A stretch of DNA of 64,000 bases from Candidatus Doudnabacteria bacterium RIFCSPHIGHO2_02_FULL_43_13b (GCA_001777655.1 MFER01000013.1:2619-66618); one strand, 5' to 3'; shown: positions 21,101-47,211, numbered from the stretch's first letter. Notes: generated from the letters alone by a model not told the origin. A program made the numbers and translations.

Positions 21101-21124
21101 GTAGTCTCTAGCTATTCGAGTTCC

Positions 21125-21180
21125 GAGAGAAGGCGCGAAGGAAACCCAAATTTCCTTCCCCTTCTCTCATTCTTTCTTTA
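21125..21180 (+). terminator. rho-independent terminator inside GC island
   Basis: GAGAGAAGG...CCTTCTCTC stem with nested GAAGGAAA/TTTCCTTC, followed by ATTCTTTCTTTA. Confidence 0.5.
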
Positions 21181-21285
21181 TTGAGAATGCTATGGAATTA
21201 AAAATTTGATTTCATGGCGGTCTCTGTAAAGACCACAGTTCTTTTCGTCAACAATCAAGCACATTCCGCCAGGAGGCGGATCATC

Positions 21286-23031: not shown

Positions 23032-23058
23032 AACACCAAGGAGGTGTTCGATAGGTTT

Positions 23059-23115
23059 CGGAGGGAAGTGTTCAGGTTTCAACCCTGACACTCCCCTCCA
23101 CCCTTTCTTTATAAA
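23059..23115 (+). terminator. rho-independent terminator inside GC island
   Basis: GGAGGGAAGTGT...ACACTCCCCTCC stem then T-rich tract. Confidence 0.5.
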
Positions 23116-23264
23116 TCTTTTAGCTCAAATTTTTAGTTCCAAAACTTGGAGCCAGAAACTTGGGCTCAAAAATCCCAAGACGGTTCTTTTGAATCAAATA
23201 GTTTAGTTCTAGTTGTTCGTTTCGTCAACCAGCTTCAGAGCCGCCTAGGTGCGGGAGGTGAGTC

Positions 23265-24122: not shown

Positions 24123-24133
24123 GAGAACGAACA

Positions 24134-24772: not shown

Positions 24773-24783
24773 GAGAGACTCAC

Positions 24784-25635: not shown

Positions 25636-25647
25636 GGAGACACGGAC

Positions 25648-26436
25648 ATGAAAAAAGTGCTAATCAGCGTCGCGACGTTCGTGTTCATCCTCGCAGCGGG
25701 ATCTGGGGTTGGCTTGCTGTGGACCAGTTTCTTCCCGCCGGAAGAGCGGGGGGTCAGGGTTGCCACGACTGATGCCAACGGAATGGTCAAAGCGCACGCA
25801 GGTGACGCCAAGACCATTCTCAAGCAAACCGGCTTCCGCGGCGGCAACGGCCGGGTCAGCGTGACGATGTTTAAGGACACCAGAACACCGGTGTCTATGG
25901 ATATCGCCAATGCCAGGCAAGCTCGCGACGAGCAAATCGCCATTGCTCGCGGCGGGTTCCTGCCAGCGCCGGATCGGTTCCTCGAAGGCTACACCCACGA
26001 CTGGGTGAGCAGCGGGATTCCGGTCTACACCTGCACGCACGTTACGGCAGCGGGTAGGATCACTCGAGATCCCATCACCGCTGCCGGGCCAGACGGCATC
26101 AATCTGGATGCCATGAATGCAGAAACGCGCAGCGCGTTTGTGCAAGAACATGGCGACAGGGCCAAGGTGCTCCCTGGGGTTCCCTGGGGAACGTTCATCG
26201 GCAAAGTCTGCGCAGACGCTGGCGGGAACAGCTGTCAAACGCCGTTCCCAATCGGCCAAAGCGCGTACCTGTCGGCTGAGCGGGTCGGTGCAGGGACGTT
26301 GTGGATCTGGACCAACGGTTTCGTAGCCCAATCAAGTACGGGGCTGTTGAATCGTTCGGACTTCAACGTCTATCAGGGCGGCTTCCGGTTCGAGCACGAG
26401 GCCGCGCCTGAATACAAGTGTAAGGGGGGGTTCTAG
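25648..26436 (+). CDS. hypothetical secreted protein
   Basis: Signal peptide MKKVLISVATFVFILAAGSG; GAGGAG SD. Confidence 0.4.
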   Translation: MKKVLISVATFVFILAAGSGVGLLWTSFFPPEERGVRVATTDANGMVKAHAGDAKTILKQTGFRGGNGRVSVTMFKDTRTPVSMDIANARQARDEQIAIARGGFLPAPDRFLEGYTHDWVSSGIPVYTCTHVTAAGRITRDPITAAGPDGINLDAMNAETRSAFVQEHGDRAKVLPGVPWGTFIGKVCADAGGNSCQTPFPIGQSAYLSAERVGAGTLWIWTNGFVAQSSTGLLNRSDFNVYQGGFRFEHEAAPEYKCKGGF

Positions 26437-26473
26437 TCCGTCGGCAGGTTCGCTTGCCAGCGGAGCAACACCG

Positions 26474-26520
26474 GGGTGTTGGGAAGACCACAAATCTTCT
26501 CACACCCCGCTTTTTTATTT
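26474..26520 (+). terminator. rho-independent terminator
   Basis: GGGGTGT...ACACCCC stem followed by GCTTTTTTATTTT. Confidence 0.5.
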
Positions 26521-26572
26521 TGCGAAGCAAAATACCCCGACCTTTAGCGTCGGGGTCATAAATATCAATGCC

Positions 26573-26601
26573 TTGACTTTTTGTAGCTTTTTTGATATTA
26601 T
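26573..26601 (+). promoter_or_regulatory. sigma70-type promoter for last island gene
   Basis: TTGACT-17-TATTAT, then AAGGAGGG SD 7 nt before ATG 26691. Confidence 0.4.
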
Positions 26602-26690
26602 ACTTCGTCGCATTCATCATTTCTTTTTTCGCGACATTTATACGATACGTTCAATTCGCACACTCTCAAGTCCAAGGAGGGACTTTACCA

Positions 26691-27685
26691 TGAAGCGCGC
26701 TCTACTCGTCGCTCTCGTTTTCGTCGCACTGGGCATGCCAGCAATGGCTGCTCAGACGCCACCCTCACCGATTTTCGAGCAAAAGCTCGAGGCGGTGGCG
26801 GTGAAAACTGTTACTTCGGTTCCCGTGCTTCTCGCGGAGATCGCGAAGAAGCACCAGCTCCAAGTCTCGATCGACGAAAAACTGGACATGGATCGGATGT
26901 ATTTGGGCGAAGTCCCGGCTGGGACGCTGAAAAGCCAGATCGAATTTCTGGCCAAGCAGTGGGACGGCAGCGCAAGTTTGGTCGGAGGCGACTCGGTCGT
27001 CATCCTCTCGACCAAGTCTTTGCCCACCAAGGCCAAGGAGACCCCGACCGCAACCACGCCGCCACCCACCACGCCCCCCCAACCCCTGCCACAGCAAACG
27101 ACAGTTGCCCGGTTGCCCTACCCATCACTGTCGGCCGCAGTAATGTCCGACAGCATGCTACCGATAACCGGGCCCACCTGGATGGACCTTCGGATGCAAG
27201 AATACAACGCCTGGGCAGAAGCCAACCAGGCATACCGAACATTCCGGTCCGCCCAGCCGTACTACTTCGGGGCTGACCAGGTCTATTCGGACGCGTACTA
27301 CCAAGGCGGGTACGGCGGTGGACTCATGTGGGGCAATCAGTTGCTCCGAATCAAAGGAGCCGCCACCCACGGCTACCTAAAAATAAACGCCATCGGCGAC
27401 ACGAAGTTTATCAAGTACGTCGTGGTGCTGCGACAGGACACGGACGGCGTTTGGATTACGGAGGGCTCCGCTGGAAAGTCCTTCCGAGATTTTCACGAGC
27501 CGATCGAGCTACCCGTCGGACGGTGGCGACTGCGGTTTGAGCTACGGAGGGATGGAGTGACCAAGTACTTGGAAGAGGTGTTTAACATCGAATCCAAGTA
27601 CGATCTATTCCATCCCAAGCAGTACGCCATTTCGGAAGAAATGATGAGAAGCTTTGGTACAACCGAAGCTATCATCAGGCGCTGA
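26691..27685 (+). CDS. hypothetical secreted protein with Pro/Thr-rich linker
   Basis: Signal peptide MKRALLVALVFVALGMPAMAAQ; TPTATTPPPTTPPQPLPQQTT linker; ORF-track start 26573 is upstream read-through. Confidence 0.45.
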
Positions 27686-27699
27686 CGGCGACGCTGAAA

Positions 27700-27745
27700 A
27701 CGCCAAAGGCCGACACCCTCCGGGTGTCGGCCTCTTTTTTTATAT
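27700..27745. terminator. bidirectional hairpin terminator at right edge of GC island / end of pilin array
   Basis: GGCCGACACCCTCCGGGTGTCGGCC perfect stem flanked by A-run and T-run. Confidence 0.55.
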
Positions 27746-27760
27746 TAGCTTGTTTAAAAC

Positions 27761-28123
27761 TTAGATTCCGCGACCTCCCGGTAGCAGCGCATTCCCAATT
27801 ACTATCACAATAACGTAAGATAGAATAATTATTATCAACCCGATGATCGAATTTTGAATAATTTTTTTGGCTGATTCTGCTTGTTCTTCATTCCCGGCAG
27901 ACGTGATGTAGCGAAAACCGCCGTAAATCAGAAAGGCTACTGCCAGAACACCAACGACTCCCAAAAATACTTTTATATAGTAATTGAATACCGTTGTAAA
28001 CGTAGACGATTGGTTTCCTGGAAGAGTAGTTTGATTAATTGGAATAATTTGTTGAGCCAAAACAATCACTGGCACCAAGAGGCTGAATAGGGCAAGTTGA
28101 ATTGTCTGTTTCAGATTCTTCAT
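27761..28123 (-). CDS. type IV secretion system pilin-like protein (VirB2/TrbC-like, CPR type), paralogue 1
   Basis: Signal peptide, two hydrophobic helices separated by GGFRYITSAGNEEQAESAKKII loop. Confidence 0.55.
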   Translation of the reverse strand: MKNLKQTIQLALFSLLVPVIVLAQQIIPINQTTLPGNQSSTFTTVFNYYIKVFLGVVGVLAVAFLIYGGFRYITSAGNEEQAESAKKIIQNSIIGLIIIILSYVIVIVIGNALLPGGRGI

Positions 28124-28962: not shown

Positions 28963-29619
28963 CTAGCCTCCGAAAAAAGTTAGGGTTGCTCGAACCAAGA
29001 CGTACGATAGTATTATAACACCTAAACCAATCACCGCCCACTGCAGGCTTTGTTTGGCGCTGGTAACTTGTTCTTCATCCCCCCGGGCAGTGGCGTAACG
29101 AAAGCCGCTGACGATGATCATCAAAATCGCCATGATACCAACCACTGACAAAAAGCCGGTTAACATCCGGATCAAAAAATCCAAGAAGGTATTATCAAGG
29201 AGCGGATTACGCACTGGGTTGTTGCCAATATAGGAACTCGGGGCCAAATCTTTCGCTCCCAAATAATCGGCCATGGCATTGACAATGATAAAAGCAAATA
29301 AAGACAAAATTAATCCTGACAGCGCCCACTTCAGTCCATCCTTGGCTGTGGTTAAGGCTTCAGAGTTGCCTTGGGCAACAATCATCCGAAAACCGGCAAA
29401 GATAATCATTATTAGAGCGGTAATGGCGAAAAAATTCGTAAAAGAGGCAATCACAGCAAAGATAAACTCGCCCAAATCGTCAAGAGAATACCGAATCGGA
29501 TTGCACAAATTCGTGTTGGTGCTACCCGGGACACAATCACTGCTTTGTTGCGCCAACGCGACGGAGGAGGTTGAAAATAAAACCAAACCAATAAATAAAG
29601 CGATAAGAAAAATTTTCAT
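28963..29619 (-). CDS. tandem-duplicated T4SS pilin-like protein (two pilin domains fused), paralogue 4
   Basis: Two copies of the helix-loop-helix unit (AGFRMIVAQGNSEALTTAKDGL and SGFRYATARGDEEQVTSAKQSL). Confidence 0.5.
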   Translation of the reverse strand: MKIFLIALFIGLVLFSTSSVALAQQSSDCVPGSTNTNLCNPIRYSLDDLGEFIFAVIASFTNFFAITALIMIIFAGFRMIVAQGNSEALTTAKDGLKWALSGLILSLFAFIIVNAMADYLGAKDLAPSSYIGNNPVRNPLLDNTFLDFLIRMLTGFLSVVGIMAILMIIVSGFRYATARGDEEQVTSAKQSLQWAVIGLGVIILSYVLVRATLTFFGG

Positions 29620-33926: not shown

Positions 33927-34592
33927 ATGACAACTAAAGTTTTTTCCGCAGCATTAGTGGGGCTTGATGCTGCACCGGTAGAGGTGGAAGTAGATATCTC
34001 AGGGGGGCTGCCAAAAGTAATTGTCGTTGGGCTTCCCGACACTGCGATCCAAGAGGCTAGAGAGCGAGTCAAATCGGCAATTAAAAATTCTAACGCGATT
34101 TTCCCGCCCAGCCGGGTGGCGGTGAATTTAGCCCCAGCGGACTTGCCCAAAAATGGCACCCATTTTGATTTGCCAATCGCGATTTCAATTTTGCTGAATT
34201 CCGGCCAAATCTTTTTTGATCCCAAAAACAAATTATTCGTTGGCGAATTAGCCTTAGATGGCAATTTGAGAGCGGTCTCTGGCATTTTGCCAATTGCTTT
34301 GATGGCCAAACAACTTGGCTTTAAGCAATTATTCATTCCGAAAGACAATAACCAAGAAGCCGGCTTAGTCGATGGAATCGAAATCATTCCAATCAAAAAT
34401 CTTTATGAGATTATCGGGTATTTGCAAAATTTGATTAAAATAGCTCCTTTGCCCAAACCAAACTGGAACCGATTCTTAAAATCCCCCGAAACTTTATTCG
34501 ACATGAAATTAATCAAGGGCCAAGAAGCCGCGAAGCGGGCGCTAGAAATAGCCGCTGCGGGTGGGCACAATATTCTTAAGTTATATTCCTAA
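33927..34592 (+). pseudogene. comM: comM/yifB (Mg-chelatase-like AAA+ competence protein) 5' fragment, interrupted by insertion
   Basis: ChlI/YifB N-terminal domain; ends ...ALEIAAAGGHNIL-KLYS*, i.e. stops at the first codons of Walker A. Confidence 0.75.
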
Positions 34593-34726
34593 TTCAACAT
34601 CCGTTAAGTTCAAGATAATTAAGCCAATATCCGTAAAAAGATAGGCATTTTTATATCTAACCAAAACTTGACGTTGGGCTTTCCATTCGATAGATTTTAC
34701 AAAATAAGTAATGAAAATGTAATTTT

Positions 34727-35635
34727 ATGCAAAAAGATTTAACTTTAAGCCCTGAAGCAAATCACGACAACGCTAAGAAGATTTTTGATAATTTGGATGT
34801 AAGCGAATCTACCAGAAAGGATTATCAATACAGAGTTGGATTATTCGTGGATTACATCCGTAGAAATAATTTTAGTCGCAACAGTTATTTAGAATACAAG
34901 CGATATCTAGCTGGAAGAAATGATGTGTCTACTTCCACGAAAAATAAATTTTTGATTGTCGCCAAAATCTTTTTAAGAGAACTTAGCCGCCTTGGTGTGA
35001 TGCAATCAGACATCACTCAGAACATAAAGACCTTCAAAGAAAATCACAAACATAAAAAAGAAGGTTTGAATGAAGAAGAAATGCAGAAGTTGGTAAGTTG
35101 GTTGCGTGAGCTTCCCTCCACTCCACAGAATACTAGACTGAGAGCCATTATAGCGTTACTCACGCTTAACGGCCTGCGACAGATTGAGATAGTAAGGTTA
35201 GACTTCAAGGATTTAGATTTAGTAGCCAAAACCGCTTTCGTTTTGGGGAAGGGGCAAGATGACCGGGAAATAGTTCATTTGCATCCCGAAGCAGTCAAAG
35301 CAGTCAGTGAATACTTGAAAGTAAATAAAATAGCTGATGGAGCTTTGTTCGTAAGTATCAGCAACGGTAGTAGAAACCATCGCCTGACAACCAGAGGACT
35401 AAGACAGATTGTGCAGAAGAGCCTTAAAAGTTTGGATATTGAAAGATGTGTTCACGGCTTCCGACATTATTTCGCTACGGCATTGATTAACAGCTACAAG
35501 GGAGATTTGCTGGAAGTGAGTCGGTATACAAGACATAAAAGTATCCAAATGCTTGAAGTATACAATGATAATATAAAGCAGAAGGCAGATTTACCACGAT
35601 ACTATAAGGTCTTTGAATCAATTAACTTTAGTTAG
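34727..35635 (+). CDS. tyrosine recombinase / phage-type integrase
   Basis: R (LNGLRQIE), HGFRHYF (H-x-x-R), terminal EVY catalytic Tyr. Confidence 0.8.
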   Translation: MQKDLTLSPEANHDNAKKIFDNLDVSESTRKDYQYRVGLFVDYIRRNNFSRNSYLEYKRYLAGRNDVSTSTKNKFLIVAKIFLRELSRLGVMQSDITQNIKTFKENHKHKKEGLNEEEMQKLVSWLRELPSTPQNTRLRAIIALLTLNGLRQIEIVRLDFKDLDLVAKTAFVLGKGQDDREIVHLHPEAVKAVSEYLKVNKIADGALFVSISNGSRNHRLTTRGLRQIVQKSLKSLDIERCVHGFRHYFATALINSYKGDLLEVSRYTRHKSIQMLEVYNDNIKQKADLPRYYKVFESINFS

Positions 35636-35662
35636 CCGTAATAATGTGATAAAATTCAAAAT

Positions 35663-36616
35663 ATGACAACAGAAAACCTAAACTTACTTCCCAAAAATAA
35701 GTTAAAATTTTCAGAGAAATATTCTGATGCCTCCGATGTAGTTTTGTTTCATGGGGACAGATTAGATTTTATGAAATCCTTACCAAGCAAATCAGTCAAA
35801 CTTGTAATTACATCTCCTCCTTACAATATAGGAAAAGCATACGAAAAAAGAAAAGACCTTGATTTATATCTGGCCGAGCAGGAAGAATCGTTCAAGGAAT
35901 GTGTTCGAATTTTAGATGACCAGGGAAGCTTGTGTTGGCAAGTCGGGAATCATATCGCTAAAGATGGAGAAGTTTTTCCACTGGACACTCTTCTATATCC
36001 GATTGGTAAGAAGTTTGGATTGAAACTAAGAAACAGAATCATTTGGCATTTCGGTCACGGACTGCATTCAACCTACAGATTTTCAGGTCGCCACGAAAGT
36101 ATTTTATGGTTCACAAAAACTGATGATTATACTTTTAACTTAGACCCAATCCGTGTGCCACAAAAATACCCTGGCAAAAAGAATTTCAAAAAAAATGGGA
36201 AGCACGGAGAATTTTCTGGCAACCCCTTAGGTAAAAATCCGTCAGACGTATGGGAAATCCCAAATGTTAAAAGCAATCATCCAGAAAAAACTTCTCATCC
36301 TTGTCAGTTTCCAATAGAGTTAGTAGAAAGATTGGTTTTATCAATGACCAACGAAGGCGATATAGTTTACGACCCATATGCAGGTGTCGGAAGTGCTTTG
36401 TGTGCTGCCGTTTTGCATAATAGAAAGGCATATGGTTCTGACATAATGGAAGAATACCTAGACATTGCAAAAGATAGAATTATAAAAGCCGTCAATGGAA
36501 CACTGAAACGGCGAATTATGGGAACTGAAGTTTATAAAGCAGAAAATTCCAATTTATCAAAAACACCTGAAGAATTTACTAAAGCAAGGTTAAAATTGTT
36601 TGGGTCCAGGAGGTGA
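35663..36616 (+). CDS. beta-class DNA methyltransferase (N4-C or N6-A), type II R-M
   Basis: Motif IV VITSPPYN precedes motif I DPYAGVGSA (permuted order of beta group). Confidence 0.8.
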   Translation: MTTENLNLLPKNKLKFSEKYSDASDVVLFHGDRLDFMKSLPSKSVKLVITSPPYNIGKAYEKRKDLDLYLAEQEESFKECVRILDDQGSLCWQVGNHIAKDGEVFPLDTLLYPIGKKFGLKLRNRIIWHFGHGLHSTYRFSGRHESILWFTKTDDYTFNLDPIRVPQKYPGKKNFKKNGKHGEFSGNPLGKNPSDVWEIPNVKSNHPEKTSHPCQFPIELVERLVLSMTNEGDIVYDPYAGVGSALCAAVLHNRKAYGSDIMEEYLDIAKDRIIKAVNGTLKRRIMGTEVYKAENSNLSKTPEEFTKARLKLFGSRR

Positions 36617-37267
36617 ACCATTATAAGTTGTTAGTTTAAGTATTTTTAAGGCCGCTTCTCTATCAGTTTCAAAAAGTTTTCGAAGTTTTGAACACTTAAT
36701 TTCTTCTTCTGGAGTAAGTCCTAGACTAATTACAAATACTGGAATATCGATATTGCTTTCACCCCGGAATTCAAAGTCTACTAAAAGTTGTTCAAAATCA
36801 GAAACACCAGTCGACATTTGTCTGGCTAATTTATGTCCAGGCACAACTTCAATTCCACATTCAATCAAACCTACTTTATTAAAAATCACCATCTTGGAAA
36901 AAATATCATAACCCATAAAAGCGTATTTCCCAAACTGGATTTCCAAACCAACATTATTTTTTATCCCGTCCATTTCTCTAAACCTATTATTACCGAATGC
37001 GTGACGAGGTTCGGTAAAAGCCTTCTTCTTCCCCACCGCTTTTTCAGTCCAACCCTTTGCATGCATAGTGGTTTTAAGCAACTTATTCATAGTAGAAGGA
37101 GAAAATAAAAGTTTACCCTTCATCGTTTTTTCTTGACTTTCCTTTACCAAACAGACAGTAGCATCTAAACTTTCAATTGCACCCAAAACTTCCCTCAATT
37201 CTTTTGGGTGTTTTACTTTTATAAATTTTTCTCCGCCTTTGAATGAGTAAGTGTCTACAACTTGCAT
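36590..37267 (-). CDS. BglII/BamHI-family type II restriction endonuclease candidate
   Basis: Convergent with MTase, overlapping 3' ends; REMDGIKNNVGLEIQFG gives D-x8-E-x-Q spacing like BglII D84/E93/Q95. Confidence 0.45.
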   Translation of the reverse strand: MQVVDTYSFKGGEKFIKVKHPKELREVLGAIESLDATVCLVKESQEKTMKGKLLFSPSTMNKLLKTTMHAKGWTEKAVGKKKAFTEPRHAFGNNRFREMDGIKNNVGLEIQFGKYAFMGYDIFSKMVIFNKVGLIECGIEVVPGHKLARQMSTGVSDFEQLLVDFEFRGESNIDIPVFVISLGLTPEEEIKCSKLRKLFETDREAALKILKLTTYNGSPPGPKQF

Positions 37268-37663
37268 AAAATCTTATTTTTGTTTCTCTATTCTAGCACT
37301 TAATGGTTAAGTTTAAAAGCTCCTGTTAGGCATCCAACTTCTTCTCTTTATACTTACAGGAAATACAAACTTAGGTAATTTTCAGGTATGATTAGGGCAT
37401 GCAGAAAAAGTTTACATTGCCTATACAACCGCCTCGACTCAAAGGAAAACTAAACCATAATGATTTGCAGGATATCTATAGAACTATTTGTAGAAACACT
37501 GGAATAGAAGTCAGGTTGGTAGATATGTGGCATCTTAGAAATAAATATAAAACTTCTCACTACGGTTTAGTGGTGAGCTATGGTAAAAATACACATGACA
37601 TATATCTCAAAAATTTATTCATCATAAAATAATAGGTTTATTATAAATATAGGTTGTAAGTGA

Positions 37664-38959
37664 TTAGCCTTTTGATGCAGGAGTTGTAGAGAAGAGCTTA
37701 AGGATAATTTCAATCTTACGCCGTAGCTCGTCAAAACCGACAATCTCAACATCTTTATTACTGTTCCTGAAAAGTTCAAAAGATTTTAGTTGTGGTTTTT
37801 TTAAATCAGAGACATTCCCAGCCACTACAATGCATTTTGAGTTAAACGATTCTATATCCTCGCCGTTCATAACTGAGTAAAAATCTTTTTGGAGAGTATG
37901 TCTCTGGTCTAGCACCTGGTTGATTGCTCCGCTTAAACCTCTACTGATTGAAAACACGTCCTTGCCACGATAAGGTCTTCCCTCAAGAAGCTTACTTTTA
38001 TGAGTTTTAATTTCAATTATGGCTAAGTTTTTTGAGAACTCGCTTTTATAAATAAAATCTGCGTACTTACCACCTTTGTTTTCGAAACTTTTGCCGCCTA
38101 CATAGGCTTGGTTTTTAAAAATAACCATCGGGTAAGAAAAGAGCTGAGAGAATATCCAGCCGTTCTCTTTGAAAAACGCCTGCCATTTTTTTTCCAGCGT
38201 TTCTGTTTCAGTCTTTTGTTCAATTAAAGCATTAAAATTTTCTAAAATAGTTTCGATGAACACCTTATCAATAGCTTCCTTTGTAGCTATAACTTTTTCG
38301 TGAGACACATTTGAATTTGGCAGTGTCTGAATAAGCTGTGTTATCTTGTCAATATCATAATCAGAGAGTTTTTCATTCGTTAATCGGTTCTCTTCAATGT
38401 AGTTGCCTAGGGAGCCAGTTACATATTTTTTATCTTCAATTTCAAATTTCTTAGGAAATATTGAATGAAGAATATCACTGGCAAGAATATTAATCTCTTG
38501 TCTGTGTCTTTTAAGAAGTGGTGAGATACGGTTGTAGGCCTTATCTAAATCTGAAGCGTTAAATACAATTTTGTTTCTATTGGGAAAAAATTCACTAGCT
38601 AATTTAGAAGATACAATTATATTTGAGATGATGGGGCACTTCTCTTCAAGGAAGTAAATTAGCGGACTTAATTCTCTAGTAAATCCATAACCATTTGCCC
38701 AAGTTTTTAGAAATCCCCTGGGTAGGGTTTCGGGCATCTCGTGGTACTCAATGCATTGAATAAATTTGTATTTATTCTCTCCAGTCTTGCGGTTATACGG
38801 GTAATGTAAAACTATCTTCTTTTTCTTAAATATTTCTCTAGATAATAACTCAAATCCATTTTCTCCATCGGTATAGAAATAAACATCCTTGGTAGCTAAG
38901 GATTTATGTAAAGTTTCTTCGGGGTCTGCACCAGTAATTTTAATTTTATTCTTATTCAT
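37664..38959 (-). CDS. Shedu-like (DUF4263) PD-(D/E)xK nuclease-domain protein
   Basis: C-terminal KKWQAFFKENGWIF...YADFIYK...LAIIEIK...AINQVLDQRH...CIVVAGN...VEIVGFDELRRK mirrors DUF4263 core. Confidence 0.5.
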   Translation of the reverse strand: MNKNKIKITGADPEETLHKSLATKDVYFYTDGENGFELLSREIFKKKKIVLHYPYNRKTGENKYKFIQCIEYHEMPETLPRGFLKTWANGYGFTRELSPLIYFLEEKCPIISNIIVSSKLASEFFPNRNKIVFNASDLDKAYNRISPLLKRHRQEINILASDILHSIFPKKFEIEDKKYVTGSLGNYIEENRLTNEKLSDYDIDKITQLIQTLPNSNVSHEKVIATKEAIDKVFIETILENFNALIEQKTETETLEKKWQAFFKENGWIFSQLFSYPMVIFKNQAYVGGKSFENKGGKYADFIYKSEFSKNLAIIEIKTHKSKLLEGRPYRGKDVFSISRGLSGAINQVLDQRHTLQKDFYSVMNGEDIESFNSKCIVVAGNVSDLKKPQLKSFELFRNSNKDVEIVGFDELRRKIEIILKLFSTTPASKG

Positions 38960-39332
38960 AGTTGGACGGTTTAGTTACCGAATCTAAATACCTCATAACA
39001 TCTGCCTTATCTATAAGGTAGCGTTTTATTTTCGTCGTGGGGTTAGAGAGTTGTGCTTTTATTTTGCCCCCATCAATCAGCTTCCTCAAGGTAATAACTG
39101 ATTTAATGGGAAACCAAGGCTGCTTTACTAACTGGGGGCAGGTAAAAACTTCCGAGCTTCCCGTTGACTCTCCCCTTAACCCATCAGGCCGTAGTATTTG
39201 GTGAATTCTTGCTCTGGACACATTAAACTTGTTACCTATTTCTTCCAAAGTATGACGGTGATAGCCATTTCGCCCCCACCTCATATCCAGCATAGTTTTT
39301 ATTTGTGCCTCACTATATTTACTTTTACTCAT
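38952..39332 (-). CDS. small DNA-binding protein: sigma-70 region-4-like HTH plus excisionase/MerR-like HTH
   Basis: TLEEIGNKFNVSRARIHQI and ITLRKLIDGGKIKAQ...RYLIDKADVMRYL; 8-nt overlap with Shedu-like gene. Confidence 0.5.
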   Translation of the reverse strand: MSKSKYSEAQIKTMLDMRWGRNGYHRHTLEEIGNKFNVSRARIHQILRPDGLRGESTGSSEVFTCPQLVKQPWFPIKSVITLRKLIDGGKIKAQLSNPTTKIKRYLIDKADVMRYLDSVTKPSNYE

Positions 39333-39570
39333 AAGGATTTTCTATATTGTAGCACTATTTACAAACCATATAAAATGATATAATAACATCACAATTTAAT
39401 AAGACCTAAATCTTTCAATTTTTTGATTGAAAGACATGGACTCAAAACCTGAAACATATTGAACCCTCACCAGGTCCTGTTTCAGGTTATATGGGGAAAC
39501 CCATATAGGTGCCGTAAGGCATCACTGGTGGGGGCTTTATGTTGCCCACCTCCAGAGAAAGAAAAAATTT

Positions 39571-40098
39571 ATGAAATGCCCATATTGTGCGGAGGAGATT
39601 CAAAACGAAGCTAAAATTTGCAAGCATTGCAAAAGTAATTTGGTGAATCCTGCCAACAATCCTTCATTGTCAGTAGACAAGCCAAAAAGGATTTTGCATC
39701 AAAAGTTGGGAACGGGAAGCTGTTTAATTTTATTCTCGGCTATTTTTTTCATAATAATAGTTTCAGTTGCAGTTATGTCTCTAGGCGGAAATGAATCCTC
39801 TTCGGTTTCCACTCCCCAGCAATCCACGGTAGACTTCGCCAAGGTTGAAAAAGCGATGGAAGATTTAACCAAGGCGGGACTGGTCAAGAAAACAGACCCA
39901 AGCCTAAACCAGGTCTATGTAAGCAAGCCATATTGGGATGCCCAGGACATTGAAGCCAAGGAAACCGCCGCAAAAGCCTTTGCCTACTATGTCGGCTACA
40001 AGAAGGGAACCAACCTTTACTGGGTGGACATTTATGATTGGCAATCAGGCAAGCGATTAGCAAAATACAGCGAATCTTGGGGCTTCACGGTTTATTAG
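39571..40098 (+). CDS. zinc-ribbon membrane-anchored protein with extracytoplasmic domain
   Basis: CPYCAEE...CKHCKSN ribbon, one TM helix, 100-aa C-terminal domain. Confidence 0.4.
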   Translation: MKCPYCAEEIQNEAKICKHCKSNLVNPANNPSLSVDKPKRILHQKLGTGSCLILFSAIFFIIIVSVAVMSLGGNESSSVSTPQQSTVDFAKVEKAMEDLTKAGLVKKTDPSLNQVYVSKPYWDAQDIEAKETAAKAFAYYVGYKKGTNLYWVDIYDWQSGKRLAKYSESWGFTVY

Positions 40099-40168
40099 TT
40101 ACGTGTAACCATTTTCAGAAGAAACGGCAGCTATTTAATTTAATCTGAAATCGGGATATAATTTATCT

Positions 40169-40690
40169 ATGGCAAAAGACCTTGAGAACAAAATCAACAA
40201 GAATTCCATATCCCTGGCTGGCGAATTTGCCGTGCTTTCCCAACTGGCCTTGCGTGGTTACGACGCAAACATGACCTTGGGTCATACCAAAAGCGTTGAT
40301 ATTTTGGTTTCCAATCCCAAGAATCATCAAATGTATCAGTTGGAGGTTAAAACCAACTTTGCCAGCTCACGCTCTCAAGGTTCAAATTCCAAATTGTTTG
40401 GCAAGATAGTCAGTGCCTGGATTATGGGTGATAAGCACGAAACCATAACCAGCCCTAATCTTTTTTACTGCTTCGTCAACATTGGCAGAGATACTAACGT
40501 CTTTCGTTTCTTTATCGTCCCAAGCAAAGCGGTGGCTGAATACGTTAAGGTGCAACATCAGTTATTCAGGAGCAACGGAGGCAATGATAACCCAATGCGT
40601 ATGTTTCGTATCGGTTTGAAAGCCGAACAATACGCAATTCCAACTCCGACAGTCGAGCAGTATGAAAATAATTGGGAATTTAAGGAATAA
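40169..40690 (+). CDS. PD-(D/E)xK nuclease-fold protein (Hjc/DUF4365-like core)
   Basis: GEFAVLSQLALRGYDAN...VDILVSN...YQLEVKT gives E...D...E-x-K arrangement. Confidence 0.4.
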   Translation: MAKDLENKINKNSISLAGEFAVLSQLALRGYDANMTLGHTKSVDILVSNPKNHQMYQLEVKTNFASSRSQGSNSKLFGKIVSAWIMGDKHETITSPNLFYCFVNIGRDTNVFRFFIVPSKAVAEYVKVQHQLFRSNGGNDNPMRMFRIGLKAEQYAIPTPTVEQYENNWEFKE

Positions 40691-40696
40691 ATTTTT

Positions 40697-40858
40697 ATGG
40701 CTTGGTACGGAAATTCAAAAGGACACGCCGAATCGGGTAGGAAAGGCGGCAAGGCCCAGGGCAAGCGTAATAACCCAGGCAACTTTGCCAATGACAGAAA
40801 GAAAGCGGCAAGAGCTGGGCGTAAGGGCGGATTAAGCAAGCCGAGTATTACTAAATAA
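40697..40858 (+). CDS. KGG-repeat general stress protein (YciG-like), 53 aa
   Basis: Not in ORF track (<60 aa); GRKGGKAQGKRNNPGNFANDRKKAARAGRKGG repeats. Confidence 0.6.
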   Translation: MAWYGNSKGHAESGRKGGKAQGKRNNPGNFANDRKKAARAGRKGGLSKPSITK

Positions 40859-40902
40859 AATTCAAAGAATAGTTGCGGTCAGAATTATTATTTTGAATAA
40901 CA

Positions 40903-41526
40903 TTGAAAAAAAAGAAATCCACCCCGATTAGCAAACTTGAATTATTGAGATATAAATCGGATTTTCAATCGGGCATAATTAAATTACGAAAAAAGTGGGG
41001 AGTCCCAGAGAACGGTTTTGATATTTATAAGGAATATAGAGCATGGGAAAATAAAGTCTTTTATAAAAATGGCGAAGCAATTATTTCAGACCTAAATTTA
41101 CTTAAGAAGGAGGGCCTAAAATCAAATCCGGTTTATAATATATTATTTTTGTGGGATTATTTTGCAAAAAGCGAACGTATAAGAAACATCGAGCCGAAAA
41201 ACGAGCTTTCGGTTCAGCTTCACACAAAGGACTTGAGAGTTACCGTTAATAATCTAAACCCCTCGACTACCCAGGAAGATTGGCTTGATTTGTGGCCTAT
41301 GATTAAAAAATTCCAACATTTTTTACCCAATTATGTTGCAAATAGGCGTTCAAGAAAATCAACGAACTGGATAATTGCCAAATTCGCACATGAACAGGCA
41401 CTAAATGGGATTAAACATAAGGATATAAAGACAAGTATAAAAAAAGAATTCGGAATAACATACGACACTTCATATATTTCAAAGTTAATACGAAGGTTCA
41501 AGGAATTTATAGAAAAAGACACTTAA
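40903..41526 (+). CDS. hypothetical protein
   Basis: 207 aa, followed by clear hairpin terminator. Confidence 0.3.
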   Translation: MKKKKSTPISKLELLRYKSDFQSGIIKLRKKWGVPENGFDIYKEYRAWENKVFYKNGEAIISDLNLLKKEGLKSNPVYNILFLWDYFAKSERIRNIEPKNELSVQLHTKDLRVTVNNLNPSTTQEDWLDLWPMIKKFQHFLPNYVANRRSRKSTNWIIAKFAHEQALNGIKHKDIKTSIKKEFGITYDTSYISKLIRRFKEFIEKDT

Positions 41527-41559
41527 GTCTGGCTTAACTGACTTCGACACTTTTATAGG

Positions 41560-41592
41560 CTACATCTTATACTGGATGTAGTTTTATTTTTG
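41560..41592 (+). terminator. rho-independent terminator
   Basis: CTACATC...GATGTAG stem then TTTTATTTTT. Confidence 0.55.
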
Positions 41593-41877
41593 CAAATTTA
41601 TTTTTAATCAGTGATTTAATTCACGGTCAAAGACCCGATAGAGGGCTTGAGCATTCATCTGACCGTGAACTCAAGCCTTGTGTCGGTTTTTAATTAGCAT
41701 TGTAATTTTATGTCCAAAGAAGAATTCGAAATTAGCTGGAATCACGTTGCCAGCCAAGATTCAGAAGATAAAATCCTTGAGGCCTTTAAGATTCTTTTAG
41801 GGGAATAGTTTCATCGTAACTAAAAAAACTTTAATTCCCAGTCGTTACGCAAATCTTAACAAATTTATGGAAATGTC

Positions 41878-42114
41878 ATGCAAACTAAATCATATCAAAC
41901 CAAAGATTTCTACATAGCCGCCGTGCTTTACGCTTCCGGTCAGGTGATTTCGTCATCGGAGTGGAGCAATGGCAAGTGTTATTTTAATTTTGAAAATCCA
42001 AAGAAATGCGAACAGGTAGTCGGCGGATATTATCAAAACAAGGTCATTATGGACGCAAAAAAATTGATTGATGCAATTCAGACGATAAAAAGCATCATCC
42101 ACTCGGAGAACTAA
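41878..42114 (+). CDS. hypothetical small protein
   Basis: 78 aa. Confidence 0.3.
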   Translation: MQTKSYQTKDFYIAAVLYASGQVISSSEWSNGKCYFNFENPKKCEQVVGGYYQNKVIMDAKKLIDAIQTIKSIIHSEN

Positions 42115-42142
42115 ATTATTAAGAAAGATGAGATGAAATGTT

Positions 42143-42622
42143 ATGAAAGACTTCACGATGATTCCTAACGAGACATACGAAGCGTTTTTGTGTGGCGAAA
42201 TTACACTTTCCGAGTGGGCGGTGCTTATATGGATATACCAAAAATCCAATCCTACTAAGGGCAGAAGCGTTGTTAACTATCCAGACATGGTTTCTCAATT
42301 CAAACCGTTAATAAAATATGACAATGCCAGAAAAATCCTCTCATCACTACGGAAGCACAAGTGGGTATATTTCAAGCCCCATCGGGGAAGTGGTGGAGCA
42401 TTTCCCGTATATCCATGCCCACTCATGCTGTCGAGCGGGCAAATACAAGTGATTGACAGGGTTACGGGAGAGAGAAAAGTTATAGATGACCCCGACCCTA
42501 GACCTAAACTTAGACGCAAACGAACCCTTGTTCCGCCAAACTCATCACAACTTTCGTCCTCGAATCACAACAGTGACAAGCAAAATGCCCCGTCAATTAA
42601 AGGTCAAGGTCAGCTTGAATAA
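42143..42622 (+). CDS. hypothetical protein with possible N-terminal winged helix
   Basis: 159 aa; followed by GGCGGCGTAAACGCCGCC hairpin. Confidence 0.3.
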   Translation: MKDFTMIPNETYEAFLCGEITLSEWAVLIWIYQKSNPTKGRSVVNYPDMVSQFKPLIKYDNARKILSSLRKHKWVYFKPHRGSGGAFPVYPCPLMLSSGQIQVIDRVTGERKVIDDPDPRPKLRRKRTLVPPNSSQLSSSNHNSDKQNAPSIKGQGQLE

Positions 42623-42808
42623 TAGTTCGTTCACAACCCTCTATATTTAGACTGATACTTAAACCTAGACCTAGACGAAGTAAAGAAAAGATAAGTAAAG
42701 AGAGAGGCGGCGTAAACGCCGCCACAACATCAAAGTGCTCACTTAAACGAATTAAGTAATATATTCAGATTAGAGTTAAAACCTGTCCGTCCCGCCAATT
42801 TAATGTCG

Positions 42809-43053
42809 CTGTTTCTTGAGAAATACGACGTATTGCGACAAGAACGACAATAAAATTTATGGAAAATGAAATTGTAGGAAATTTAGATTTGGCCTGTACA
42901 CGCCTGTACGAGCCTGTGAATTTATGAATTTGTTGTTTCTTGAGAAAAACGACGCACAGCGACGCAGACGACGCAGAATTTTATGGAAAATGAGATTGTA
43001 AAAAATTAAGAATTTGCCTGTACATGACTGTATAAGCCTGTGAACTTATGGAA
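42809..43053. repeat. two ~124-bp tandem repeat units with internal short direct repeats (iteron-like)
   Basis: Units begin GTTTCTTGAGAAA (42811, 42935); each contains GACGCA-type and 3x GCCTGTAYR sub-repeats. Confidence 0.6.
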
Positions 43054-43379
43054 GAAAGAGACTGTCAAAATTAAGGGTTTAGTCTTGCGTTTAGGGTGCA
43101 AAAGTGGGTTAAGGGAAATAAATCATAATTTTTGCACAAGGTTTCAAAATCCATAGGAGGACGGTGGCGGGCTTGGTTCTGTCCTACCACTCCAACAATC
43201 GCATCCCTGCCGTCATAAGCGGTAAATCGAAAATTACGAACGTCGGGGGCTAATCAAACCAAAGCCCAACCACCCAAAGAAGCCAAAGGATAATTTTGTT
43301 TCTCTTACTTGCGGTCATGTGGTCAAAAGTTATGATTCAATCATAAACCACCAACGCAGGAGGGAGAAAGCAAAAATTT

Positions 43380-44351
43380 ATGGGCAAGGCTAAGAATCAA
43401 ACTTTGTTTGGAAACGAAATGCCAGAACACAACGGTTTCCCCACGAACTTGTTGACATCAGGGTTGCAAAAAGCTATTAGGAGGAACGATGAACAAAGGG
43501 CGTTGAAGATAACCAAGGCCCTATTCCGGCAGGACCCGCAGTCATTCCTTCGTCGCATAGTGGTAATAGCCGCAGAAGATTGCCTAGTTTTGCCAGCCAC
43601 CGGCAAAATCGTGGAGCTTGCCAGAGAGTACGGCTCCAAAAAACGGATAGCGGCAATGACGAAAGAAAAAATCCAAGCCGATTGCCAGTTTGCTCTTGAA
43701 ATCGTCCAACAGCTTGCTCTCTGTCCCGTGCGAGACTATGACGGCGGAGGATATGTTCCTTATCTTTACCACAAGAAGGACATCAACAAGTTGCCGACTG
43801 ACACGACAGGGTTATCTAAAAAAGAAGCCGAGCTGGTGGGAGCCATCCGCAAGCGTAAGGCGATGGGAGGTATGCGTGGTGACTTATGGACGTTGGAAAT
43901 AGTTGCCCATATATGGACTGACCGCTTCAAGCGAAAACAATTCACCGTCAAGCAGTTGGAAAATTATTTCCCAGAGCCGACGGTCAAGGCCGAAGAAATA
44001 TCAGACCAACCTGACGAGTCGGACATTCCGATAGAAACGATTGACAGCCATTGTTCGGGAATTGTGCCGATATTGCTGAAAAAGCCGCAAGTCACGGCGG
44101 CGATTAAAGCGGCGTGGGGAAACATGACGAGTGAGATGATGGAAACTAAACTGAAGCAGACGTTGTTTTATTGCAGAAGCTGGATAAATTTCAAGGCAGA
44201 CATCATTTCCGGCAGAACGTTCGACAGGTTCGGGACAATTGTTTACGAAGACAAGCCGCTTGAGCAGGAAAAAATAAGGAGGGTGTATGAGGAAATAGCG
44301 CAGGAGGTAAATAAACTTAGTCGCTGGATTATCCAGCAGTCATTAAAGTAA
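43380..44351 (+). CDS. hypothetical protein (323 aa) downstream of iteron-like repeats
   Basis: No motif recognised. Confidence 0.3.
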   Translation: MGKAKNQTLFGNEMPEHNGFPTNLLTSGLQKAIRRNDEQRALKITKALFRQDPQSFLRRIVVIAAEDCLVLPATGKIVELAREYGSKKRIAAMTKEKIQADCQFALEIVQQLALCPVRDYDGGGYVPYLYHKKDINKLPTDTTGLSKKEAELVGAIRKRKAMGGMRGDLWTLEIVAHIWTDRFKRKQFTVKQLENYFPEPTVKAEEISDQPDESDIPIETIDSHCSGIVPILLKKPQVTAAIKAAWGNMTSEMMETKLKQTLFYCRSWINFKADIISGRTFDRFGTIVYEDKPLEQEKIRRVYEEIAQEVNKLSRWIIQQSLK

Positions 44352-44613
44352 TCAAGAAAGTAAATAATTTATGAGCATTTTATGCAAAGGTTATCAACTG
44401 GGTGGTTCGTCCGAGGCAAGATTGACAAGTATAATGAAAAATTTTGCCAACAGGCGGACAAGAGAAGGCAAGCAAAGGTCGCAAAAAAGCAAAAGACCCA
44501 AGCCGATAAGCAGTAGGTCTTTAGCGGAAACCAATTAAGCGTCGTAACGCCTAACCGTTTGTCTGTATTATAATACGACATTCGGAAAAGCGGAAGACCT
44601 GAAGATTAGAATT

Positions 44614-46347
44614 ATGAATGTTACAATTTATGGTCGTGTTTCAACGGAAGAGCAGAAAAAGAAGGAAAATATCGACTCCCAAGTCGACGAGTTAGAAAAA
44701 TTGGCTAAAGAGAGCAAGGGAGAGTATTCGCTAATCAATGATTATAAATATCTTGATGATGGTTGGAGCGGAGGCATCTTAAACCGTCCGGCGTTAGATA
44801 AGTTAAGAGAGGATGCGACTAGGGGTTTATTCTCGGCCGTATTGGTCAATGATGTAGACAGGCTTTCAAGGGACAATACCCACTTAGGAATCATAATAAA
44901 AGACCTGAGGCGTAAGGGCGTGCGGGTAATTTTTCGAAAGCATCCTGGCGAGCAGAACCCCCAAACGAATTTACTCATAAACATTTTGGGGTCGTATGCG
45001 GAGTTTGAGAAAGAAATGATAGCGGGAAGAACTCGGAGAGGGCGAATGTATAAAGCTCAGGTGCTGAAAAAAATTGTCGGGAGCAGACCGCCTTATGGTT
45101 ATAGATACATCAAAGGTGATAAGAGCAAAAATATATTCGGTTATTATGAAGTGGTTCCATCTGAAGCCGAAGTCGTTAAAATGATGTTTAATTGGGTAGC
45201 CTATGAAAAGAAAACCGCCAGAGAAGTTGTTAGAGAATTAACGAGAAGAAAAATTCCAACCAAGAAAAAAAATACGAAGTGGGCGAAAAGCACGGTTCTA
45301 AGAATCCTGCATAGAACTGATTATATATGCAAGCTGTATTACAACAAGCAAGAATGTGTTGAAACTGACAAACACATCAATACTGATTTGAAGCCTCGCA
45401 AACAGTTAAAATCAGGCAGACGGACAAGACCAATCGAAGAATGGATACTCATACCCTTACCTGAACATTTGAGAATTATCAGCGATAAGACTTTTGATTT
45501 AGTTCAAAAATCAATAACAAATAATTTGTCGTTTTCTCCCAGAAACGGTAAGCGGGAATACTTGCTTAGAGGCAGGGTGTATTGCGGTTTGTGCGGATGT
45601 CTTTATCAGGGCATACCGTGCCACGGGAAAACTTACTATCGTTGCGGAAACAGGGGCAAGACATTCCCAGAACCAAGAACGTGCTTTGCACCGACCATAA
45701 CGACTTCTAAACTTGACCAGCCTGTATGGGAAGCATTGACTAGAGCAATACAGAATCCCAGATTGATTGTGGAACAGGTCAAAAAAATTAAATCTTCTCG
45801 ATATTCGGAAGAAGACAAAATTCGGGGGCAGATAGACGAATTAGCAAAGCAGGTTAACAGCTACGACCAAGAAGAAGAACGGGTCTTGGAGGCTTACAGG
45901 CATAAGGTGATTACGCTTGAGCAGTTGAATAAAGAGATGACTAAAATTCGCCAGGAAAGAGCCGTCTTTATTCAGCAACGTGATGAATTATTAGCCAAGC
46001 TAAGCAAGGTTTTACCCGAAGACGCTGAAAAGTCCGTCATAGCATACTGTGCGATTGTAAAAGCCAAATTAGAGAAAATGAGCTTTACAGAGAAACAACA
46101 ACTATTGCGGCTATTGGTTAGCAAGATAGTTTTGCAGGACAAGAGATTTGAGATAGACGCAGAGATACCATTGGTTGACAGCGATTATCTAAAATCCTTC
46201 AAAAACAGCAAAATCCTTGAAAATGATGAAGCAAGTTCAATTAGGAACATAAGCTCCTGCTTTCCGGACCCCCCGGTACAGGCAAAACCTTGTTGGCGAA
46301 AGCCCTCTCCTCTATTTTACCCAAACCCACGGTCAGCGAGGTGCTAG
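44614..46347 (+). CDS. large serine recombinase (resolvase/invertase N-domain plus recombinase and zinc-ribbon domains)
   Basis: YGRVSTEEQ catalytic Ser, DRLSRD, Cys cluster CGLCGC...YYRCGN; ORF tail runs across the comM junction. Confidence 0.85.
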   Translation: MNVTIYGRVSTEEQKKKENIDSQVDELEKLAKESKGEYSLINDYKYLDDGWSGGILNRPALDKLREDATRGLFSAVLVNDVDRLSRDNTHLGIIIKDLRRKGVRVIFRKHPGEQNPQTNLLINILGSYAEFEKEMIAGRTRRGRMYKAQVLKKIVGSRPPYGYRYIKGDKSKNIFGYYEVVPSEAEVVKMMFNWVAYEKKTAREVVRELTRRKIPTKKKNTKWAKSTVLRILHRTDYICKLYYNKQECVETDKHINTDLKPRKQLKSGRRTRPIEEWILIPLPEHLRIISDKTFDLVQKSITNNLSFSPRNGKREYLLRGRVYCGLCGCLYQGIPCHGKTYYRCGNRGKTFPEPRTCFAPTITTSKLDQPVWEALTRAIQNPRLIVEQVKKIKSSRYSEEDKIRGQIDELAKQVNSYDQEEERVLEAYRHKVITLEQLNKEMTKIRQERAVFIQQRDELLAKLSKVLPEDAEKSVIAYCAIVKAKLEKMSFTEKQQLLRLLVSKIVLQDKRFEIDAEIPLVDSDYLKSFKNSKILENDEASSIRNISSCFPDPPVQAKPCWRKPSPLFYPNPRSARC

Positions 46348-47129
46348 AAATAACTAAAATTTACAGCGTGGCGGGCTTGCTGCATTCGAACAAGAATCTG
46401 GTCACCACCAGACCGTTTCGCCATCCTCATCATACTTCTTCGTCCATCGCTTTAGTGGGCGGTGGCTCGATGCCCAAACCCGGTGAAATATCCTTAGCTC
46501 ATCGGGGGGTGCTATTCCTAGATGAATTCCCTGAATTTGGCCGGTCGGCTTTGGAAAACTTAAGACAACCCTTAGAAGATGGGGTGGTTACGGTTGCCCG
46601 CGCTGCCGCCACCCTGACTTTTCCCGCCCAATTCACGATGGTTGCTGCCCAAAATCCCTGTCCTTGCGGCTATTATTCCGATCCGGGCAAAACCTGTACT
46701 TGTTCACCATCACAAATCATGAAGTACCAAAAAAAAATCTCAGGTCCTCTCCTTGATCGGATTGATCTTTGCGTCGAGGTCGGCAGGGTGGAGTATGAAA
46801 AACTGGCTTCTGATGATCTAACCGAATCATCTGCAGATATACAAAAACGCGTGCAAACTGCGCGCAATGTTCAAACTAAGCGATTTGCCAAATACCCAAA
46901 TATAAAAACTAATTCAGAAATGGGGATTCGAGAAATCAGGGAGTTTTGTAAACTTGATGATAGTGGTCAAAATTTTATGAAATCTGCCGTGATTAAGATG
47001 TATCTATCCGCGCGTTCTTATCATCGGATCTTAAAACTTGGACGAACAATCGCAGACCTCGAAGGTTCAGAGGATATTAAAATTCCGCACTTGGCGGAAG
47101 CAATTCAGTATCGCCCCAAGGTAGAATAA
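46245..47129 (+). pseudogene. comM: comM/yifB 3' fragment (AAA+ ATPase and C-terminal domains)
   Basis: Frame opens after TAG at 46242: EHKLLLSGPPGTGKTLLAKAL (Walker A), VLFLDEFPEF (Walker B), Mg-chelatase C-terminus. Confidence 0.8.
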
Positions 47130-47132
47130 TTT

Positions 47133-47211
47133 TTGGTGGGCCTGCCTGGACTTGAACCAGGAACCGTTCGGATATAAGCCGAATGCTCTAACCAGTTGAG
47201 CTACAGGCCCG
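47133..47211 (-). tRNA. tRNA with anticodon TAT (Ile, AUA-reading) - anticodon assignment tentative
   Basis: Reverse complement GCGGGCCTGTAGCTCAACTGGTTAGAGCATTCGGCTTATATCCGAA...GGTTCAAGTCC...CCA. Confidence 0.55.

Follow-up and report, generated by a model that had tools for sequence, protein, structure and literature searches.

Genes and features at the comM locus

We analysed a stretch of 64,000 nt (hereafter the window) from Candidatus Doudnabacteria bacterium RIFCSPHIGHO2_02_FULL_43_13b (GCA_001777655.1 MFER01000013.1:2619-66618). More specifically, the feature under study lies at window positions 33927-47129, where the comM/yifB gene is interrupted by an integrative element carrying genes for a Xer-like tyrosine recombinase and a large serine recombinase (LSR). 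Protein domains were annotated using Pfam, NCBIfam and PHROGs, defence systems using PADLOC and RNAs using Rfam, and protein structures were modelled with AlphaFold (AF2). Homologues of comM, including a ComM of the same species, were searched for in 5.8 billion protein clusters and the 120 best homologues were used for the comparison of lengths. Contigs with the LSR or the comM 5' fragment were collected from JGI, ENA, Logan and NCBI assemblies. The features that define the locus are the following (window coordinates):

33927..34576, + strand: comM/yifB 5' part, codons 1-216 plus the CT of Leu codon 217
34551..34600, + strand: left attachment (att) site attL (B arm, CT, P' arm), from in-register comparison with attR and intact homologues
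34576..34644, + strand: orphaned LSR 3' end, 22 codons (LSYIPNSTSVKFKIIKPISVKR) plus TAG, contiguous with the LSR open reading frame (ORF) only in the circular form
34727..35635, + strand: Xer-like tyrosine recombinase, 302 aa; Pfam Phage_integrase 3e-24, PHROG integrase, catalytic motif pattern readable
44614..46347, + strand: LSR, integrated form, 577 aa; residues 1-548 element-encoded, residues 549-577 out-of-frame comM
46233..46282, + strand: right site attR (P arm, CT, B' arm), from in-register comparison with attL; CT at 46257-46258
46257..47129, + strand: comM/yifB 3' part, codons 217-506 plus stop; opens with the Walker A motif

The two comM fragments rejoin in frame

A first-pass annotation of this DNA had described comM/yifB as split by an element of about 11.7 kb, and this description is borne out: the two pieces of the gene lie at 33927-34576 and 46257-47129, separated by an insert of 11,682 bp. 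Reading of the ORFs also agrees with the fragment ends given there. The open frame of the 5' part extends into the element as KLYS and closes with a stop codon at 34590-34592, giving an ORF of 221 aa (33927-34592) with the C-terminal end ...AAGGHNIL-KLYS. Downstream of the TAG at 46242-46244, a frame on the same strand, reading EHKLLLSGPPGTGKT..., is open to 47129. The 5' ORF matches Pfam ChlI (2.7e-45) and profile positions 1-26 of Mg_chelatase, while the 3' part matches Mg_chelatase positions 22-206 (9.1e-83) and Mg_chelatase_C (3.6e-32). All three expected domains, namely the N-terminal ChlI domain, the AAA+ domain with its Walker A motif and Mg_chelatase_C, are present across both pieces.

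Joining the pieces in register yields a protein of exactly 506 aa, in frame and with the conserved GGHNILLSGPPGTGKT. This is also the modal length among the 120 best homologues (Candidatus Doudnabacteria ComM/YifB), and the best identity of an intact Doudnabacteria ComM to the join is 82%. A tblastn search of the window with the joined ComM returned two pieces only, covering aa 1-217 (100%) and aa 214-506. The tblastn result, the Pfam domains and the 506-aa join uphold the proposal that the halves rebuild a ChlI-N plus AAA+ protein, and alignment of the fragments to intact ComM, the check put forward with it, gave homologues up to 82% identical and a matching length of 506 aa. Unrelated paralogue remnants, the alternative raised at the time, are not what we see, the two pieces being the sole ones in the window, abutting and joining in frame. 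The two fragments are the halves of one gene. In the genome of a related member of the Doudnabacteria (GCA_001779995.1), comM is intact and has the same neighbours (GalU, LexA, DUF3276, comM, ROK, LspA, RecA, RodZ, FtsK), and this matching synteny supports a simple insertion. Across several samples and assemblers, the KLYS-tailed 221-aa comM product is found in identical form on 20 contigs and the integrated form of the LSR on 23.

Insert boundaries and att sites

To define the att core, comparison of 34560-34600 with 46230-46270 had been suggested. We compared the junctions in register with the intact gene and found that attL and attR have CT alone in common (34575-34576 and 46257-46258), the insert being exactly the 11,682 bp at 34577-46258. 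Neither a flanking direct repeat nor a target-site duplication was found at the element ends. The crossover CT lies within Leu codon 217, and the consensus of the homologues at the break is GGHN[ILV]LLSGPPGTGKT. The earlier placement of the split at the Walker A codons can be refined, the break being three codons before G220, the Walker A glycine; the Walker A codons are within the right half of attB.

The attP rebuilt from the two element ends is GTTCAATTAGGAACATAAGCTC-CT-TAAGTTATATTCCTAATTCAAC, an imperfect palindrome centred on the CT, and it reads ...GGAACATAAGCTCCTTAAGTTATATTCC... across the joined ends. Arm complementarity about the CT is 15/20 (18/24), which ties the window maximum, with 4 of 63,958 positions as high. 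The attB inferred by joining the comM halves (...GGGCACAATATTCTGCTTTCCGGACC...) is far less symmetric (9/20), and the two sites, both reconstructed, agree at 19 of 82 positions. The attP sites used by LSRs are imperfect inverted repeats, about 40-50 bp long, with a non-palindromic dinucleotide at their centre; attB is different, and identity between the sites is limited to the crossover. The att anatomy at this locus reads as LSR-type and unlike that expected of a tyrosine integrase.

The short motif GCCTGTAC occurs in four copies against 0.6 expected, three of them in a tandem repeat within the element and one in the Walker A codons. The latter copy is probably a coincidence and was set aside, the attP arms of the element being devoid of the motif.

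The LSR and the same target codon in its relatives

The LSR contains the Pfam domains Resolvase (2.6e-30), Recombinase (7.9e-19) and Zn_ribbon_recom (6.7e-9), and its residues R8 and S10 are invariant in alignments of 30 and 44 relatives. In the AF2 model of a relative, P0141, residues 356-476 form long helices, consistent with a zinc-ribbon domain that holds a coiled-coil insertion, and the model matches 9y66, 9dxf, 9rah, 9iu2 and 4kis, all solved structures of LSR-att complexes, which confirms the LSR fold. In the protein clusters, the nearest relatives are 46-48% identical and nothing else reaches 50% or more; the best match in phage databases is to WO recombinases, at about 30% identity.

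The two closest relatives for which context is available, P0123 (Candidatus Pacebacteria; contigs L007 and L008) and P0122 (contig L094), are 46-47% identical, and in both of them the comM 3' half comes directly after the LSR, from aa 213-214. Contigs L097 (free form) and L007 (integrated form) are identical through ...CCCACAACACCCT and divergent directly after, a divergence point that sets the crossover at the same CT in the same comM codon. Further afield, an LSR 35% identical adjoins a comM 5' half ending HNVL, in inverted orientation, on a Terriglobia contig (L070), and an LSR adjoins comM at a Wolbachia locus (L028). The scan of GTDB genomes for LSR relatives gave mostly distant LSRs, with comM adjacent only in L028 and L070 among the matches listed. 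Other close relatives (L095-L097 and L009) have mobile-element gene surroundings and no comM nearby.

Because the att sites are identical at the CT only, attP is palindromic on that CT and the relatives have the same architecture, we assign the insertion to the LSR and not to the tyrosine recombinase at the left end. The order of the two genes is as annotated at first, with the tyrosine recombinase at the start of the element (34727-35635) and the LSR at its end (44614-46347), but the LSR does not merely abut comM: its ORF crosses attR and enters comM by 29 codons, out of frame.

The LSR gene spans attP and exchanges its tail upon integration

Residues 549-577 of the integrated LSR are CFPDPPVQAKPCWRKPSPLFYPNPRSARC, a proline-rich stretch read from the out-of-frame Walker A codons of comM (CFPDPPVQAKPCW...). 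In the rebuilt circle, the LSR ORF has 570 aa, of which the last 22 codons, LSYIPNSTSVKFKIIKPISVKR followed by the stop, are those found orphaned at the left end of the integrated element. Non-integrated relatives have a conserved C-terminus, ...DIMPTTPYSHGHNTTFRFELVEKIR followed by a stop, with which the rebuilt tail aligns. Of 120 LSR relatives, the native tail is present in 17 and the KP[CYF] ending that corresponds to out-of-frame Walker A codons in 6-7, against about 0.5 expected by chance.

In the AlphaFold model of the free form of P0141 (mean predicted local distance difference test score, pLDDT, of 81.9), the tail is a beta-strand at residues 533-541 (pLDDT about 78) that follows a beta-hairpin at 495-512, and pLDDT falls below 50 only in the part that the attP core encodes (517-531). 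According to this model, attP lies, in this LSR clade, in a predicted disordered linker just before the conserved terminal beta-strand; integration takes that strand off the LSR, and excision would restore it. A full-text literature search for attP inside an integrase gene found this arrangement discussed only for archaeal SSV-type tyrosine recombinases (PMC8371274), which argues for novelty only weakly. Should the tail matter for activity, stability or directionality, integration could toggle the LSR between two protein forms and provide a memory of the integrated state coupled to comM on/off. We regard this as unlikely, and any functional consequence of the tail swap as speculation; if true, it would represent a self-contained integration memory linked to on/off control of the transformation helicase in bacteria of the candidate phyla radiation (CPR).

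A GHN peptide and the 9-mer GGGCACAAT in the LSR tails of the relatives were considered as a copy of the comM GGHN codons. Such a half-site equivalence was rejected because the 9-mer has the same orientation but is on the other side of the crossover; inverted pairing with the P-arm motif TATT[AG]TGCCCA accounts for GGGCACAAT better.

Proposed events and alternative explanations

Taken together, the locus is very probably the product of an LSR-driven insertion of a defence-carrying integrative element into comM, with a swap of the LSR tail. In this scenario, a circular element of 11,682 bp, with an LSR frame running over its own attP, would have recombined with the chromosomal comM, and the exchange between attP and attB at the CT of Leu codon 217 would have produced attL and attR. 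comM would have been cut three codons before Walker A into two fragments predicted to be non-functional, and the LSR gene would have been set against the comM 3' half. The last 22 LSR codons would have ended up at the left end, and in the LSR gene their place would have been taken by 29 comM codons read out of frame. The element itself would have come without phage or conjugation genes, as a backbone of a LOOT RNA, ORFs of 173, 207, 159 and 323 aa and a repeat array, loaded with exchangeable cargo genes, in this case those of a type II restriction-modification pair and of a Shedu nuclease. Since ComM is published as a helicase of natural transformation, its loss probably protects the element from transformation-driven curing. 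In silico, precise excision by the LSR restores both the 506-aa comM and the 570-aa native LSR.

A number of points weigh against this scenario. All 23 LSR contigs are of the integrated form and essentially identical, the insertion event being a reconstruction, and the attB sequence comes from the comM halves. Exact matches to attP were absent from IMG/VR and JGI metagenome contigs, and exact matches to attB from JGI metagenome contigs, a search that variants of the sites would escape. No intact ComM with more than 82% identity was found in the protein clusters. Finally, no recombination directionality factor (RDF) was recognised among the element ORFs, the only candidate being a weak excisionase-like HTH_17 match in a 126-aa protein; directionality factors have no common signature.

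Integration by the tyrosine recombinase at the left end, instead of the LSR, is highly improbable. Its gene lies about 150 bp from attL and encodes tyrosine-recombinase catalytic motifs, but the element ends have no identical core beyond the in-register CT, attP is palindromic in the manner of LSRs, and relatives that lack this tyrosine recombinase gene have the same LSR-comM junction. The protein moreover resembles Xer-type resolvases and not phage integrases with arm-binding domains, its NCBIfam XerA/XerC/XerD matches all being far below cut-off. We rejected this alternative on the att core, the form of attP, the relatives and the Xer likeness. The tyrosine recombinase, which would sit just downstream of the LSR in the circular form, is probably not the integrase of this insertion, and we infer that it is either cargo or a dimer resolvase. 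The chance that the junctions are an assembly chimera is negligible: among JGI, ENA, Logan and NCBI assemblies, 23 contigs have the attR junction and 20 the attL junction, and the comM halves flank the insert in the correct synteny. An artefact of this kind was rejected on the contig recurrence and the synteny.

The two remaining alternatives concern the fate of the element after insertion. It is conceivable, if rather unlikely, that the element is now immobile and fixed, with an LSR that cannot excise without its terminal beta-strand and a comM permanently lost in the lineage. The exclusive finding of the integrated form, on 23 identical contigs from several samples, is consistent with such fixation, and so are the conservation of the native tail among relatives, where it is a predicted beta-strand at the end of the C-terminal region, and its replacement here by a proline-rich, out-of-frame one. 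However, no element gene has a frameshift or stop codon, the orphaned tail ORF is still intact, and the existence of relatives in both free and integrated forms implies that the family cycles between the two states; assemblies, being consensus sequence, are in addition blind to rare excision, which falls below their detection. Conversely, the element could act as a regulated reversible switch of the regulated gene integrity or active-lysogeny type, excising in particular conditions to restore comM and then re-integrating. The restoration of the 506-aa comM and the 570-aa LSR by precise excision, two intact recombinase genes, a weak NCBIfam match of the LSR to XisF (far below cut-off) and the listing of yifB among the candidates for regulated gene integrity (PMC7192596) would favour a switch. 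We nevertheless judge it distinctly unlikely, given that neither the excised circle nor the empty site nor a same-species intact ComM was found in the collections searched (IMG/VR, JGI contigs and protein clusters), that no RDF was recognised in the element, that the integrated LSR is without the conserved terminal strand, and that defence-gene cargo is what is expected of a selfish mobile element. LSR-driven insertion of a mobile element, with tail swap, is the explanation that we prefer.

Gene content of the element

The remaining features of the element are the following:

35663..36616, + strand: type II N6/N4 DNA methyltransferase; Pfam N6_N4_Mtase 4.3e-53, PADLOC MTase_II 8e-81
36590..37267, - strand: BglII-like type II restriction endonuclease; Pfam Endonuc-BglII 2.1e-17, PADLOC REase_II 2e-31
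37664..38959, - strand: Shedu nuclease SduA; Pfam SduA_C 7e-25, PADLOC SduA 2e-81
38952..39332, - strand: helix-turn-helix (HTH) protein, 126 aa, Sigma70_r4 and HTH_17/excisionase-like (Pfam); weak PHROG excisionase match, E = 0.0013
39403..39523, + strand: LOOT RNA (Rfam RF03000), full length; 78.9 bits against a gathering score of 46.4
39571..40098, + strand: zinc-ribbon protein, 175 aa, probably membrane-bound, downstream of the LOOT RNA; weak Pfam zinc-ribbon, PHROGs of unknown function
40169..40690, + strand: 173-aa backbone ORF; 83% aa identity in contig L098, PHROGs of unknown function
40903..41526, + strand: 207-aa backbone ORF; homologue in L094, the element that the closest LSR relative has in comM
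41878..42114, + strand: DUF5659 protein, 78 aa; Pfam 1.5e-10
42143..42622, + strand: 159-aa backbone ORF; N-terminal 106 aa 40% identical to an LSR-adjacent ORF in L094
42810..43050, + strand: two tandem 117-nt repeats, 79% identical, with internal short repeats of the GCCTGTAC type
43380..44351, + strand: 323-aa backbone ORF; 88% aa and 85% nt identity to L098, 34% aa identity to L099

Anti-phage systems recognised by PADLOC are the type II restriction-modification pair and Shedu, the start of the Shedu gene being overlapped by the HTH gene. The element genes are free of frameshifts and stop codons, and both recombinase genes are intact. Among the element ORFs, no capsid, terminase, portal, tail or lysis genes were detected using Pfam and PHROGs, and Pfam revealed neither relaxase, coupling protein or type IV secretion genes nor transposase domains in the element. 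Scans for promoters and terminators gave counts no better than in shuffled sequence.

The tandem repeats lie within a 730-nt ORF-free stretch upstream of the 323-aa ORF and are possibly a replication origin or an array for regulator binding. Conservation of the 323-aa ORF in L098 extends to about 270 nt of the DNA upstream of it. The ORF has no family match in Pfam, PHROGs or NCBIfam, and its AF2 model, built from three sequences only, is poor (pLDDT 54). Its N-terminal region (SGLQKAIRRNDEQRAL...IAAEDC) weakly resembles the C-terminal helical domain of MgsA/RarA (Pfam MgsA_C, E = 0.12, in one homologue only).

Related elements share parts of this backbone in a mosaic fashion. The Doudnabacteria element L098 has the LOOT RNA, the ORFs of 173 and 323 aa and the DNA upstream of the latter ORF (80-88% identity), and carries an unrelated LSR, set against a tRNA gene containing a group I intron; the different LSR at a tRNA gene shows that elements with a common backbone have swapped their integration modules. 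L094 has counterparts of the 207-aa and 159-aa ORFs and an AAA_15/AAA_21 ATPase in place of restriction-modification and Shedu. In L095-L097, the LSR relatives are accompanied by TrwB-type coupling proteins and a Replic_Relax gene. We conclude that this integrative element is small and modular, and that its integration and defence modules can be exchanged.

Several side observations were made on these relatives. In L098 (6600-7110), the LSR ends inside the 3' end of the tRNA gene with the group I intron (Rfam Intron_gpI, 73 bits), and a full-length LOOT RNA is found at 245-367 on the + strand (Rfam RF03000, 81.9 bits against the gathering score of 46.4). Both in the present element and in L098, the LOOT RNA lies just upstream of an ORF of about 175 aa, suggesting that this orphan RNA is a component of mobile elements. 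In L009, a group II intron at 7905-9827 (reverse transcriptase/maturase ORF and Rfam Intron_gpII match) lies just upstream of the related LSR, the native tail of which is out of frame.

Comparison with known systems

Genes split by LSR elements include Listeria comK (A118/phi10403S), spsM (SPbeta, with SprA), sigK (skin, with SpoIVCA) and the target of the fdxN element (XisF) of Anabaena. The present element resembles these in having its LSR at one end and a split host gene that precise excision would restore. In those elements, however, regulated excision, directionality factors and a phenotype have been demonstrated. The analogy with intervening elements that excise and repair their gene, drawn in the first-pass annotation, found no support in the present data.

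The first-pass annotation had called comM an integration hotspot, a view confirmed by the literature: homologues of Mg-chelatase/ATP-dependent protease are the most enriched LSR target, with 12.4% of predicted site-specific LSRs directed at them, and LSR targets in general are enriched in competence genes (Durrant et al., 2022; PMC10083194). As in that catalogue, we find an LSR element inside a ChlI/YifB-type AAA+ coding sequence with the LSR next to the att site, and diverse LSR lineages converging on one conserved site (PMC10083194). Unlike the catalogue, which covers NCBI genomes, the present case comes from uncultivated Doudnabacteria (CPR), with an LSR less than 50% identical to others; no mention of an LSR ORF spanning attP was found in PMC10083194. 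Similarly, the sr1-type WO phages of Wolbachia use a serine recombinase to integrate into a Mg-chelatase gene, fragments of which flank the insert (PMC9203015). WO is a tailed prophage of 40-65 kb, whereas the present element has 11.7 kb and no virion genes; moreover, comM homology at the Wolbachia locus (L028) starts from about aa 33 instead of aa 214, and there is no overlap with the LSR ORF.

Disruption of comM by diverse mobile elements has been reviewed and tied to escape from transformation-mediated curing (PMC12378983). The AbaR islands of Acinetobacter baumannii likewise target comM, with the same likely pay-off of reduced transformation protecting the island (PMC11441513, PMC12378983), but they are Tn7-like transposons with target-site duplications, whereas the present element is site-specific and without transposase genes. 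In SSV1-type archaeal integrases, attP also lies inside the recombinase gene and integration splits that gene (PMC8371274). These are tyrosine recombinases of archaeal viruses and plasmids that are divided into two large gene halves; here a serine recombinase loses its last 22 codons only.

The locus is a clean instance of an already documented type of insertion and leaves current understanding unchanged. The range over which LSRs hit their commonest target, the Walker A region of comM/yifB, now includes CPR bacteria, of which at least two lineages (Doudnabacteria and Pacebacteria) are hit at the same codon, and the locus supplies a fully specified set of LSR, attP and attB from a clade that has been little explored. 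DNA uptake is a process on which CPR bacteria are thought to rely. Knockout of the transformation helicase together with delivery of restriction-modification and Shedu fits the published conflict between mobile elements and transformation. An LSR gene that spans attP, with a terminal strand lost on integration, is a small mechanistic point, and the element also provides a genomic home for the orphan LOOT RNA.

Surroundings of the locus in the window

A second compositional island, with 54-61% GC against about 42% elsewhere, is located at about 18000-28000 of the window and starts just after tRNA-Leu(tag) (17365-17451) and FtsH. Its large ORFs are all on the + strand and comprise zinc-ribbon/PP2C-like, VWA, Ser/Thr kinase and CSD-like proteins as well as four without a Pfam match; no recombinase was found among its ORFs of at least 150 aa. 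Type IV secretion-type pilin genes (PF18895) lie upstream of the comM neighbourhood, both in the window (28963-29619, - strand) and in the relative (L091/L092, 1-1927). Directly after the comM stop codon, a tRNA-Ile with the anticodon TAT is encoded on the - strand (47134-47210). This anticodon is uncommon in bacteria, where AUA is usually decoded by a modified CAU tRNA.

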